Assembly (NCBI RefSeq): GCF_003018115.1
Contig: NZ_CP027457.1
Length of the DNA stretch: 64,000 bases
Direction: 5' to 3' (one strand)
DNA from: Escherichia coli
GTDB taxonomy: Bacteria > Pseudomonadota > Gammaproteobacteria > Enterobacterales > Enterobacteriaceae
Part shown: one piece after another, positions 24,001-27,000 of the stretch
Layout of the letters: every line of letters starts with the position of its first letter
Position numbering within the stretch: the stretch's first letter is position 1
Position numbers: made by a program

Positions 24001-27000
24001 CTCATCCCGTTACCAACATGCTTTGCCCATTTCGTCAGTTGCCGTTCCGCAAGTCGTTTTAACTCACCCTGCGTCATCTGGCGCTCAATCCCTCTGGTAC
24101 GCATTTCGAGGCAGATGTGGTACAGCACAGGCTGTGGCCACGGGTATTTATCACTCCCGTCGTATCGCCAGGATTCATTGCGCCAGCGCCGGTACTCTTC
24201 CATCACGGCATCCACCGTAAGACCAAATGGATTTGCCCCACTCTCCGAAATCAGCGCAACAAACTCAGCCAGGTCCGGGGGCCACGTTTCACCCGCCCGG
24301 CAGCGGTCCATGCACTGACGACAGACCTGCCGGATTTGCTGTTCAGTCATCGCACCAATCTGGGCAATCCAGAGCTTCGAAGGTGCGGCCCCGTTCTTCT
24401 GAGTCCAGCGGTTCGAATACACCTCCCCCATAAGCTCCCACAGCTTCCAGGCCGTTTCCGTTGCTGATAAATCCGTTTTCACGTTCCCACTGTTCGCGTG
24501 CTGCCCGGATTTCCTGAACTGCCCGTGATGCCGTGCCACCTGATGCTGCATGGCTTACCCCCTTGCTGACTGGTTTTACCTGTGCCCTGACGTGCTGCAC
24601 GTGACGGGCAAATTTCTGCTCCCACTGAACCTGCGTGAAAACCTTCCCCTCCGCCATCCAGTAATCCCGGAATGCGGCAAGCTCAGCAGGTGTAAATTCC
24701 GGCTCAGGCAGAGCCATACCCCACACTGCTGCCCGTTGTCGAAAATCCGGCGACGGCTGCCAGACAGTAGTCATCGAAAATTTCCCGATCGGTTCGCTCA
24801 GGCCGTCCAGGTATTCAGGTTCGGCTGTCTGCAACGGCGCACCATTCGACTCACTGGTCGGAATACTCTCGCGCGCGTTATGTGTGGGGTTTAATTCTGT
24901 ATCTGTATCTTTATCTGTCGTGACTTGTCGTGACAGATGCGTGACACGTCGTGACTCATCGTGACAATCAGCATTATGTTTCCGCAGCTTTTCCCGCTCC
25001 CGCTGCGCTCTCTTGCGCTCTGCCGGGGATTTTGCCGTTTGCGAAACGTTACCATTGTCCTCTTTCAGCACCTGACGTTTTTCCCATCCGGAAATAAGGT
25101 CACCATCCAGAACCCGCCCCTGCATTGCATGCAAAATTGAATCAATTACGTCTTCCGTCACATCAAGCGCACTTGCTAAATCTTCCGTCGTGACATCAAT
25201 GTGACCACGTAGTGACACGCCGTGACATGTCGTGACATTTCGTGACGCGCTCACCAGAAGGTGGATATACACTGCCATCACTGTTGCGATTGGCTGTCCT
25301 GAGACCCTGGCAATAGTTCGCCACTTGGGGTCATTTGGCATGTCATGCCACAATCTGAGCCAGGCATTAGCCATACTCACCTCTTCTGATACCGAACTTT
25401 ACCCACGAACTTCCGGAAGAAATCCGGTATAAATATTGTTGGTCAATGTACAACAACAGCATTACCAGGCTGACCACCACTGTTAGTCAGGGTGCCCCAG
25501 GCGATCGCTACAGCGACAAAATCATCCACATCTTTCACCAGCCGATCCCGTCGTTCGACGATCTCCCGGTAATATTCAGAACTGTGACTGCGCATACGGG
25601 CCACCAGCAAAGGCGGCATCGCCTTTTCGATCGCCGGTAACAGCGCCTGAATTTTTTCAACAGCATCAGGCGTATCCTTCTCCACCCAGCGGAAAATTTT
25701 CTGGGTATTACGGGCCAGGGCTTCCGGATGGCTGTCGTCGTACAGTTCCGGGAACGTCATCCCCAGTTCGAAATAAGTCCGGGCTATTTCAGCTGCGGGA
25801 ACTTTCTCACCGTCCGGATATGCCCAGGCATTCATCGCCATGCGGATGTGTTCATGTTTGATTTTCATGAATCATTTTTCCTTTCGTTCGAGGTGTTATC
25901 CTTCTTTTTGTAAAGTTCTGGGTTCAACGATAGTTTTCCCTTGGAGTATGCAACTGCTTCAGCAGCCCTCCCCTTGGGAACTATTTCGCCGGGACGCTTA
26001 CGCCACATGTATATAGCTTCTCGGGTTACCCCATAAAAATCAGCGACTCTTTGGACAGAACCAAAAAACTGGACAAGTTCATCAACTCGCATTTCGCCCC
26101 CTTAAAACTAAGTATTTTTAGATTAAAGGGTAATTTTTTTTAGGTCAATACAATCTAAAATAATTTATATTCAATTCGCGGGAGAAAATAATGGAAAGCC
26201 TTGGCATTAGGCTTAAGAAACTCAGAAAAGACAAAGGGCTGACCCAAGTTGAACTTGGCAAGCTTTCTGGCGTAACTGGGGTAACAATAGGATACTGGGA
26301 GAAAGATCTAAACGAACCAGGTAGCAAAGCTCTTAGTAAATTAGCCCTAGCACTAGGCACTACTGAGTCCTATCTCCTGTATGGAGTATCATCACCTGAA
26401 TCATCCCTTGTGCAGAAAAATCCAGGTACCCAAATCCCATACCTTTCTTGGGGAGAAGCGATTTCTTTCCTAATATTAAAAGGAGAGAAAACTATGGGAA
26501 ATGTCGACAGGATCACCACATTCTTTGATGTCAAGGAGGGAGATTTTGCCGTTTCAATGCCTGATGATACTATGCACAATCCATCAGGGTCCCCAAGCAT
26601 TCCAGTTGGAGCCACAGTGATCATGAGGCCTGGCGAAAAATATAAAAATGGTAGCATCGTCGCTGTAATAGTCCCAGATCCACTCACAAACGAACCATCC
26701 ATGACTATAAAAAAATTAGTTATTGATGGAAAGCTCGTGTACTTAGCCCCCCTTAACCCACGCTATCAATCATCCTTACTTACACCGGAATGTAACATCG
26801 TTGCTGTAGCAAAAGGTGTTCAGTTCAGCCTCTAGCTCCCGCTTTGCCCTGTAATCAGAGGTCGGCTTTGCCGGCCTTTTATTTTAAAAATATTTATATT
26901 TAACTTGACGACAAAACTAAATATTCTTATATTCATTGCAACCCACCCCGCTTCACAGAATGCAGGGCAATACCTAGAGTTACCAGGCAGTGGTCAGGGG

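Follow-up and report, generated by a model that had tools for sequence, protein, structure and literature searches.

Introduction

YdaT proteins have been studied in prophage CP-933P (Sp12) of Escherichia coli O157:H7 (PDB 8BT1; PMC9986795, PMC8630535) and in the Rac prophage of E. coli K-12 (b1358; PMC11879457). The CP-933P protein switches on an otherwise silent PRE933P-gfp reporter and shows no toxicity (PMC8630535), and the YdaT tetramer binds two operators (PMC9986795). In Rac, an operator termed the YdaT-box is needed for a 29-fold activation of leftward transcription, and the Rac and CP-933P proteins cross-activate (PMC11879457).

Here we analyze a ydaT gene in a 64-kb stretch of E. coli DNA (64,000 nucleotides of NZ_CP027457.1, hereafter the window). 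A preliminary description of the locus considered the role of the gene, whether in the lysis–lysogeny decision or as a toxin, to be unclear. That view is outdated, as the published YdaT proteins are tetrameric, CII-equivalent activators (PMC8630535, PMC9986795, PMC11879457). The window YdaT very probably serves a lambdoid Stx2-converting prophage as its CII equivalent, activating the establishment of lysogeny, and not as the toxin of a toxin–antitoxin (TA) pair. It is an ordinary and already characterized YdaT-type regulator. As a gene call it is of little import, YdaT being a published, structurally solved CII analogue that is common in E. coli, and the one correction needed concerns the database label "toxin", which is misleading. 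However ordinary, this copy is located in an Stx2-converting prophage, within the immunity region; in such phages the lysis–lysogeny switch governs the dissemination of stx as well as toxin release.

The ydaT gene and its setting

As described previously, the gene occupies the cII position after cro. A single ATG-started ORF of 141 codons lies at exactly 25443–25868, on the minus strand (the preliminary description had given no strand). It is the second gene of a rightward early operon, located between a Cro-type gene and the replication genes and divergent from the repressor gene. The first gene of the operon (25865–26092, minus strand) encodes a 75-aa cro-like protein of the P22_Cro/DicC type, which matches Pfam PF14549 (P22_Cro) with 37.2 bits against a cut-off of 30.2 and is 38% identical to a DicC-type Cro; its stop codon and the ydaT start codon share an ATGA overlap. 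Past ydaT the operon continues with an O-like replication initiator (24343–25380, minus strand; Pfam DnaT domain; PHROG 1408/15931, replication initiation protein), with CGTGAC-type iteron clusters visible in the sequence, and a lambda-P-like loader is also encoded downstream on the same strand. In the gap between ydaT and the O-like gene, neither an Rfam match to an OOP-like antisense RNA nor a terminator-like site was found.

On the other side of the cro-like gene, the cI–cro intergenic operator/promoter region (26093–26190) contains AT-rich inverted repeats (I1–I3) and promoter-like matches. It is followed by the cI-like repressor gene (26191–26835, plus strand), which is divergent from cro and ydaT and encodes a 214-aa LexA-family product with HTH_3 and Peptidase_S24 domains (Pfam; PHROG 4), named "LexA family protein" in RefSeq. 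A terminator-like hairpin lies beyond this gene at 26857–26879, and no CIII-like partner was found among the small ORFs of the leftward operon (26840–28400).

The proposed resemblance to the YdaT family was borne out by an HMM search, in which the protein matched PF06254 (YdaT_toxin) with 39.6 bits (gathering cut-off 21; E 7.2e-10). Residues 1–125 also match PHROG 163, "CII-like transcriptional activator" (E 7.5e-46), and residues 1/2–141 are covered by the solved structures 8bt1 (E 8.5e-78) and 3c4r (E 2.8e-77); no NCBIfam model matched. Because the Pfam score exceeds the curated cut-off, two solved structures match at E values near 1e-77, and RefSeq records of identical prophages carry the gene as a CDS, the ORF is genuine and not a chance reading frame. 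The preliminary description was also right that the protein is not lambda CII. Homology to CII (Phage_CII) was rejected, as no Pfam family other than PF06254 matched at E <= 0.01 and BLASTP against lambda CII gave an E value of 0.99. The direct repeat TTGCN6TTGC is absent from the immunity region, its only match in the window being at 52158.

The window protein shares 120 of 141 residues (85%) with CP-933P YdaT in an ungapped alignment, and the recognition-helix residues 50–61, including R53 and R60, are the same in both. The hydrophobic tetramerization core of alpha6 is present (I103, L110, V111, V114, F117, V118 and A121). Among 26 YdaT homologues, down to 24% identity, N54, Q56 and R60 are invariant and W61 is nearly so. 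The C-terminal tail, GGxxG..V-x-V-H, is conserved although crystallographically disordered, and ends in histidine in 17 of the 26; it could serve as a CII-like tag for degradation. This type of ydaT occurs in more than half of all complete E. coli genomes.

The YdaT-box and a predicted leftward promoter

An 18-bp inverted repeat at 25858–25875, which reads ATGATTCATGAAAATCAA on the minus strand, spans the cro stop codon and the ydaT start codon. Nothing in the window matches TTGATTN6AATCAA better, and it is the sole exact WTGATTN6AATCAW site in the 64 kb, where 0.01 would be expected. The repeat is identical at 18 of 18 positions to the DNase-footprinted Rac YdaT-box (PMC11879457), the sequence of which we confirmed in K-12, and at 17 of 18 to the CP-933P operator OM (PMC9986795). 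Looser relatives of the box are no commoner in the window than chance predicts (with up to two mismatches, 11 others against 6.8 expected; with up to three, 22 against 35, which is no enrichment). We asked whether the tetramer might loop to a perfect palindrome at 23508–23525, CTGATTCGCGCGAATCAG, in which the inner box is exact; this palindrome has no −10 element at 20 or 21 nt on either side and is absent from CP-933P-like loci, and the idea was dropped.

At 21 nt past the box, and pointing towards cI, is a −10-like sequence, TGT-TATCCT (25894–25902, plus strand), which we predict to be the extended −10 element of a leftward, YdaT-dependent, pRE-like promoter. Transcription is predicted to start near 25909, which would place the center of the box at about −42. 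TATCCT is a weak −10 hexamer and was found solely by comparative analysis of spacing; a default sigma-70 scan of the ydaT–cI interval called no leftward promoter. A TAnnnT motif occurs 20–21 nt past the box in all 11 YdaT flank types, against a background of 0.021 per offset, and the weaker hexamers among these loci bear a TGn extension. This constancy of spacing, kept in 11 of 11 loci, implies that a conserved activator-dependent pRE may be a common feature of YdaT loci. Even the phage record labeled "Rac" (MN652886), whose box is degenerate with four mismatches, still has its −10 at 20 nt.

Published promoter assignments bear on this prediction in different ways. The YdaT-responsive 120-bp PRE933P fragment extends just 18 nt beyond the box on its upstream side, too little for a promoter there, and carries TACAAT at the 21-nt spacing. 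The wording of the structural paper on the position of PRE933P relative to OM is ambiguous (PMC9986795), and for Rac, Wons et al. credited activation to a promoter predicted some 190 bp away from the box, not to a box-proximal one (PMC11879457).

Tetramer formation, DNA binding and promoter activation have been shown by others for the close homologues in CP-933P and Rac, and we infer that they carry over to the window phage. Upon infection or derepression, the rightward early promoter would transcribe cro, ydaT, O and P, with ydaT translation coupled to that of cro through the ATGA overlap. The product would fold into a POU-like helix-turn-helix domain and a long C-terminal helix, the latter forming the four-helix bundle of a tetramer that could bind the inverted repeat straddling its own start codon. 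Bound at about −42 of the weak leftward promoter, YdaT would recruit RNA polymerase, and the resulting transcript would cross the cro-like gene in antisense and continue into the cI-like gene, its presumed target. The expected outcome is a burst of repressor for lysogeny, with Cro dampened, by which YdaT would probably promote lysogenization. The effect on cI is drawn by analogy only, because the LexA/S24-type repressor encoded here differs from PaaR2 and RacR; for CP-933P YdaT, Wons et al. report no demonstrated change of PaaR2 levels (PMC11879457).

A candidate second site upstream of xis and int

A possible second YdaT target, analogous to pI, occurs at 31317–31360 on the plus strand. It consists of a box-like sequence, CTGATTTTTAATGTTCAA (31317–31334), a spacing of 20 nt, and TGA-TATTCT (hexamer 31355–31360), the hexamer lying in the loop of an inverted repeat (hairpin). 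The genes downstream are xis (31389–31658) and int (31627–32745), both identified with Pfam. When 22 box-like sites were screened for geometry (40 under a looser rule), this was the only one in the window, besides the pRE box, with the box-to-TAnnnT arrangement.

Rac and four other phages have the second site as well. Phages Evi and 689R5, like Rac, show the same arrangement of box and TAnnnT in front of three other unrelated downstream flanks. In Rac (K-12 positions 1,413,503–1,413,520), the other side of the palindrome is flanked by TACAAT, beside the annotated start of the ralA sRNA. An int-proximal box was not found in Klebsiella phage ST405-OXA48phi1.2, so the second site is not universal.

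From the sequence comparison, we regard the region upstream of xis and int as a candidate site and a possibly new lead. YdaT-type CII analogues may use one fixed promoter design (box, 20–21 nt, TAnnnT, with the box near −42 in a class II-like position), both at pRE, Rac included, and at an undescribed pI-like promoter upstream of xis and int. YdaT could thereby coordinate the repressor with integrase and excisionase, and the C-terminal tail would perhaps act as a degron. As unrelated immunity types have the box in common, a YdaT made by any co-resident prophage could cross-activate them. We put this wider scheme forward tentatively, rating its chance at slightly below even. The box-proximal pRE core promoter and the YdaT-dependent promoter upstream of xis and int are testable predictions. 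If true, pRE and pI would complete the analogy with CII, and the second promoter could explain the rise of about 100-fold in xisR/intR on RacR depletion in K-12.

Alternative explanations

YdaT could instead act mainly as a repressor or roadblock at the cro/ydaT junction, blocking its own translation and rightward transcription into O and P. The ydaT start codon lies under the box together with its ribosome-binding region, "repressor" is the word used for YdaT in the structural paper (PMC9986795), and Rac YdaT bound in the racR–ydaS intergenic region lowers racR expression (PMC11879457). We nevertheless consider a primarily repressive role unlikely. Mutation of the Rac box left ydaT-lacZ unchanged and abolished leftward activation (PMC11879457), CP-933P YdaT turns on a PRE933P reporter that is otherwise silent (PMC8630535), and a pure roadblock leaves unexplained a −10 element at a fixed distance from the box in 11 of 11 loci.

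That the gene is a functionless relic in a decaying prophage is very improbable. Many YdaT copies do reside in cryptic prophages such as Rac and CP-933P, and a single genome can hold as many as seven. The window ORF, in contrast, is intact and full length and keeps all family-invariant residues, and both the YdaT-box and the −10 element are intact. The prophage retains cI, cro, O, P, Q, stx2AB, xis and int within the window, and a nearly identical prophage carries annotated lysis genes. The immunity region (25300–26900) is 100% identical across six STEC genomes, and close homologues occur in INPHARED phage records, complete genomes among them.

The proposal that YdaS and YdaT form a type II TA pair, with YdaT as the toxin, draws on the Pfam family name, on RefSeq naming identical copies "toxin YdaT family protein", and on the filamentation and death caused by over-expressed Rac YdaT (PMC11879457); it is scarcely credible here, as the upstream gene matches only a P22_Cro/DicC-type Cro and not YdaS (PF15943), the protein is a DNA-binding tetramer (PMC9986795), the 85%-identical CP-933P YdaT is non-toxic (PMC8630535), the Rac toxicity is indirect and regulatory, acting through rcsA, on which the CP-933P homologue has no action, the TA label, which goes back to a program that predicted TA pairs in 2007, has since been rebutted (PMC5917428), and K-12 YdaT is now annotated as a "DNA binding transcriptional activator". 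The upstream regulators next to which the same ydaT is found, moreover, are of at least five unrelated kinds (YdaS, P22_Cro, DicC-type and other HTH proteins among them), a variety not expected of a cognate antitoxin.

Comparison with known systems

The CII-equivalent activator that we favor for the window is of the CP-933P type. Both proteins have 141 residues, and their 35–49 loop is also identical, whereas the C-terminal tail differs at residues 120–134. In CP-933P, ydaT likewise follows a cro-type gene with an ATGA overlap, and the operator has the same location as the window box. The homology between the two loci begins exactly at the box. A −10-like hexamer lies 21 nt from the box in both, TACAAT in CP-933P and TGT-TATCCT in the window. 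The partners differ, being YdaS and PaaR2 with the paaA2–parE2 TA system in CP-933P, and a P22_Cro-type Cro and a LexA/S24-type cI in the window. CP-933P is cryptic, whereas the window prophage, with stx2, Q, xis and int, looks complete. The E. coli O6 YdaT homologue solved by structural genomics (PDB 3C4R) is about 84% identical to the window protein over 141 residues, with the differences mostly in the C-terminal 20 residues, and it has the same fold as 8BT1 (PMC9986795).

Rac YdaT belongs to the same family, and its locus has the same cro–ydaT–replication order. The K-12-type protein is just 31% identical to the window YdaT over the full length of the latter, yet it shares the C-terminal GGxx..VxVH tail, and its 18-bp box is identical, with TAnnnT 20 nt away. 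In Rac, ydaS and ydaT are separated by a gap of 22 bp, whereas the window genes overlap. Rac YdaT also binds between racR and ydaS and at the host rcsA promoter, and its over-expression is toxic (PMC11879457); the window protein is of the CP-933P type, which differs from Rac YdaT in having no action on rcsA.

Lambda CII (PF05269) occupies the same map slot as ydaT, between cro and O. It shares the logic of an activator made from the rightward early operon that turns on a leftward promoter, antisense to cro, feeding cI. Both CII and YdaT homologues are tetrameric, and in both systems the activator's site overlaps the −35 region of a promoter that is otherwise silent. The means differ, in that YdaT is POU-like, forms a closed 222 tetramer and binds an inverted repeat, whereas CII is a dimer of dimers that binds the direct repeat TTGCN6TTGC (PMC9986795).

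YdaT in the immunity region of an Stx2 prophage

The 141-aa ORF at 25443..25868 (-; ATG start, from the ORF listing) belongs to the YdaT family, as the preliminary description had suggested. It matches Pfam PF06254 ('YdaT_toxin') at 39.6 bits against a gathering cut-off of 21 (E 7.2e-10), and its residues 1-125 match PHROG 163, 'CII-like transcriptional activator' (E 7.5e-46); no NCBIfam model was found for it. It was also rightly distinguished from lambda CII, to which no similarity is detectable (BLASTP E 0.99). The best solved-structure matches are 8bt1, the YdaT of the cryptic O157:H7 prophage CP-933P (E 8.5e-78), and 3c4r (E 2.8e-77). 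Native CP-933P YdaT is identical at 120/141 residues without gaps, including all of loop 35-49 and recognition-helix residues 50-61, and the differences lie mostly within residues 120-134, which border and enter a tail disordered in crystals of 8bt1 (the model covers Lys2-Leu124 only; PMC9986795). The protein has Arg53 and Arg60 and all seven core residues of alpha6 in the four-helix bundle (I103, L110, V111, V114, F117, V118 and A121). A search of 1.84 billion cluster representatives returned only 71 matches, many of them fragments. Across 26 aligned full-length homologues, the most distant at 24% identity, no substitution occurs at M1, N54, Q56, R60, L76 or P78, and W61, A79, I80 and P85 are almost as constant; conservation in the family is thus strongest on the helix alpha3 face that reads DNA.

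The gene had been placed after cro, in the cII position, and the neighborhood bears this out. The preceding 75-aa ORF (25865..26092, -) is cro-like (Pfam P22_Cro 37.2 bits, cut-off 30.2; 38% identity to a DicC-type Cro), and its TGA overlaps the ydaT start codon (ATGA). A 214-aa LexA/cI-type repressor (26191..26835, +; HTH_3 and Peptidase_S24) is divergent from ydaT. Downstream are an O-like initiator (24343..25380, -), which has a DnaT domain and contains CGTGAC-type iterons, and a lambda-P-like helicase loader on the same strand. The CGTGAC repeats, probably origin iterons, form two clusters (24910-24970 and 25190-25250), which is unusual by comparison with the single cluster of lambda.

The window also encodes the stx2 A (15997..16956, -; RIP domain) and B (15716..15985, -; SLT_beta domain) subunits, three tRNA genes (17050-17298, -), a Q antiterminator (17442-18263, -), DicF antisense RNA in the leftward operon (28148-28199, +), xis (31389..31658) and a lambda-type int (31627..32745). 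Thus ydaT sits in the immunity region of an Stx2-converting lambdoid prophage that appears complete. After DicF comes a dicB-like ORF (28387-28575, +) matching the dicB annotated in the RM10466 prophage, and two further RNA features are an STnc100 sRNA just downstream of stx2B (15427-15641, -) and a naRNA4 element in the flanking region (50736-50804, -). Six complete E. coli genomes, several of which are named STEC serotypes (e.g. RM10466, O22:H8 RM10809-3, O91:H21 and O113:H21), match positions 25300-26900 at 100% identity, and the RM10466 prophage shares about 18 kb with the window at 99.7% identity. By the annotation of that prophage (L001, 14807-15369), a putative ParD/ParE-family toxin-antitoxin pair occurs at about 20106-20668 (+), between the replication and Q regions and on the strand opposite to the early genes.

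A YdaT-box and a predicted adjoining promoter

DNase footprinting of CP-933P YdaT identified the inverted repeat 5'-TTGATTN6AATCAA-3' at the ydaS/ydaT junction (PMC9986795). In a scan of the 64 kb, the best match to this repeat, with one mismatch, is 25858-25875, at the cro/ydaT junction, which reads ATGATTCATGAAAATCAA on the ydaT strand. It is identical at 18/18 positions to the box footprinted for Rac YdaT by Wons et al. 2025 (5'-ATGATTCATGAAAATCAA-3', overlapping the ydaT start codon; PMC11879457), a sequence confirmed in the K-12 genome, and at 17/18 to OM, the CP-933P operator. When A/T is allowed at the outer positions, this is the sole exact site in the window (0.01 expected from block shuffles). 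On the cro side of the box, the window and the CP-933P-like locus are unrelated; their homology starts precisely at the box. Other E. coli genomes keep the box with 0-1 mismatch beside at least five different upstream regulator genes. Therefore ydaT and its box behave as a self-contained mosaic module. Elsewhere, a perfect 18-bp palindrome inside the DUF1627 gene (23508-23525, CTGATTCGCGCGAATCAG) matches the inner ten box positions exactly. No -10 lies 20/21 nt from this palindrome, and CP-933P-like loci lack it; it may reflect chance or a second tetramer contact.

The leftward promoter PRE933P, at the ydaS/ydaT junction, is silent until CP-933P YdaT turns it on (PMC8630535). The responsive fragment, defined by the mBio supplement primers, is 120 bp long and consists of 18 nt, the 18-bp box and 84 nt towards ydaS. 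This fragment has no room for a promoter upstream of the box, and its sole -10-like hexamer at a suitable place, TACAAT, follows the box after 21 nt. Eleven YdaT loci were read on the cI-ward strand: the window, CP-933P-like, K-12 Rac, four other E. coli prophages, a DicC-type 'Rac' record, and phages of Klebsiella (two) and Actinobacillus (one). Their flanks are unrelated, except for one pair with 67% identity. All 11 carry TAnnnT 20 or 21 nt after the box, against a background of 0.021 per offset; no other pair of offsets exceeds 3/11. TGn precedes the weaker hexamers TATCCT, TAACGT, TAGCCT and TAACTT and is missing before TACAAT, TATGAT, TATCAT and TATGCT, the pattern expected of real promoters. 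From these sequences we infer that a conserved core promoter adjoins the box. For the window, the box spacing predicts an extended -10, TGT-TATCCT, at 25894-25902 (+), and a start of this leftward promoter (pRE) near 25909, which would centre the box at about -42, where class II activators bind. The predicted transcript would cross most of cro in antisense and then enter cI; the sole terminator-like site on its strand is 26857-26879, after cI.

Proposed role of YdaT

The role of the protein had been called unclear, a judgment overtaken by work on near-identical proteins. On gene order, Casjens (2003) and Jobling (2018) made the case that YdaS and YdaT are the counterparts of Cro and CII (PMC5917428). 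The CP-933P structure of Prolic-Kalinsek et al. 2023 combines a POU-like HTH domain with a tetramerizing helix; one tetramer binds two operators, and truncation after residue 96 abolishes binding (PMC9986795). In Rac, a 29-fold rise in leftward transcription towards racR needs the box (PMC11879457). Tetramerization, DNA binding and promoter activation are shown for these homologues, and the sequence of the window itself shows the gene, its family, residues and gene order, the box and the spacing; by extension, YdaT is very probably the CII-like activator of lysogeny establishment in the Stx2 phage. The rightward early promoter would yield a cro-ydaT-O-P message, with YdaT translation coupled to that of Cro. 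YdaT would then tetramerize, bind the box over its own start codon and activate a weak leftward pRE, giving repressor message and antisense cro RNA, and the repressor would shut the lytic promoters to establish lysogeny.

YdaT acting purely as a repressor or roadblock at this box seems improbable, since the published reporter data and the conserved -10 both contradict it. That ydaT is a dead relic is quite unlikely: the ORF, box and promoter are intact, the prophage is rather complete, and close homologues are present in deposited phage genome records. The toxin of a toxin-antitoxin pair, a label that is carried by 12/12 of the matches listed ('toxin YdaT family protein') and has been argued to stem from a 2007 prediction program (PMC5917428), is scarcely credible, given that the upstream gene is no YdaS, ydaT is found beside various unrelated regulators, its 85%-identical CP-933P homologue is non-toxic (Jurenas et al. 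2021; PMC8630535), and Rac YdaT toxicity is indirect, through activation of host rcsA, which the CP-933P homologue leaves unaffected (PMC11879457).

We take the CII-like activator to be already known, as the gene is both ubiquitous and characterized. A 433-bp query of ydaT plus box, with matches covering at least 80% of it, found the pair in 3014/5426 complete E. coli genomes, in up to 7 places per genome and mostly at 80-95% identity. The current K-12 annotation reads 'DNA binding transcriptional activator YdaT', and in a study of 419 Stx phages and their regulatory regions YdaT is mentioned a single time.

A candidate second YdaT site upstream of xis and int

The window contains 22 box-like sites within three mismatches, or 40 if the two outer positions are ignored. 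Besides the pRE box, only 31317-31334 (+, CTGATTTTTAATGTTCAA) has TAnnnT at 20/21 nt: TGA-TATTCT, with its hexamer at 31355-31360 (+), 20 nt after the site. It lies just past the exonuclease stop codon, in the upstream flank of xis and int. Phages Tritos, 813R8, Evi and 689R5 have the same box in the same place; in Evi and 689R5 the downstream sequence is unrelated, yet TATATT and TATAGT occur at 21 nt. Among the comparison sequences, counterparts of the window site lie at L018 26511-26528, L019 30159-30176, L023 31379-31396 and L024 3914-3931.

Rac-type phages have a recombination module different from that of the window. K-12 Rac (L022 1704-1721; K-12 1,413,503-1,413,520) and phage 673R7 carry the palindromic CTGATTATTAATAATCAA, exact at the inner ten positions. 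In a scan of the 23-kb Rac prophage this is the only inner-exact site with the box-to-TAnnnT geometry besides the YdaT-box; it lies between rcbA and xisR, with TAACAT 21 nt off and pointing at xisR. On its opposite side (L022 1704-1757), TACAAT is found 20 nt off, its end 10 nt short of where the RalA antitoxin sRNA (ralA) is annotated to begin. Together, the two hexamers suggest that one YdaT site might serve two divergent promoters.

All four independent downstream flanks share the box-to-TAnnnT geometry, and in 4/4 an inverted repeat of about 8-11 bp holds the hexamer in its loop. Three hairpins, with repeats of 10-11 bp, were folded (window 31339-31370, L019 30180-30214 and L022 1663-1700; z -2.7, -3.1 and -1.5), and between the window and Tritos the stem shows a compensatory change, A-T to G-C. 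The hairpin could serve as an RNA element or as the operator of a different protein. On its geometry, the site is a possible YdaT-dependent analogue of the integrase promoter pI. The roughly 100-fold increase in xisR/intR mRNA upon RacR depletion (Gucwa et al.) counts for a link to YdaT, and the finding that YdaT alone does not induce Rac excision (Wons et al., PMC11879457) counts against it. No integrase or excisionase targets of YdaT are mentioned in PMC8630535, PMC9986795 or PMC11879457, and a search for literature on xisR promoters found nothing relevant.

Comparison with lambda, Rac and CP-933P

The tail disordered in 8bt1 (residues 120-141, encoded at 25443-25505) carries a GGxxG(N/D)x(V/I)xVH motif common to homologues only 31% identical, ending in SGGQPGNAVVVH in the window, RGGPAGNAVVMH in CP-933P and GGGSSDDSVIVH in Rac; 17/26 aligned homologues have a C-terminal His. 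By analogy with the C-terminus of lambda CII, this tail may be a degradation tag. Jurenas et al. left CII-like proteolytic control of YdaT open (PMC8630535), and no CIII-like gene was found.

In Rac, activation by YdaT was ascribed to a predicted promoter, PracR4, about 190 bp away (PMC11879457). The reporter kept all DNA between the box and PracR4, so a box-proximal promoter could explain the activation too. K-12 Rac (L007) has TATGAT 20 nt from its YdaT-box; we suggest that activation could run through this hexamer, and the published assignment may need re-testing. We see about an even chance for a fixed class II promoter design at pRE and at a pI-like xis-int promoter, together with cross-talk between prophages and a possible degron; this reading as a whole, if true, would be of moderate interest to specialists in phage regulation. 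Rac-type YdaT is 31% identical to the window protein over its full length, and Rac and CP-933P YdaT bind and activate at each other's sites (PMC11879457).
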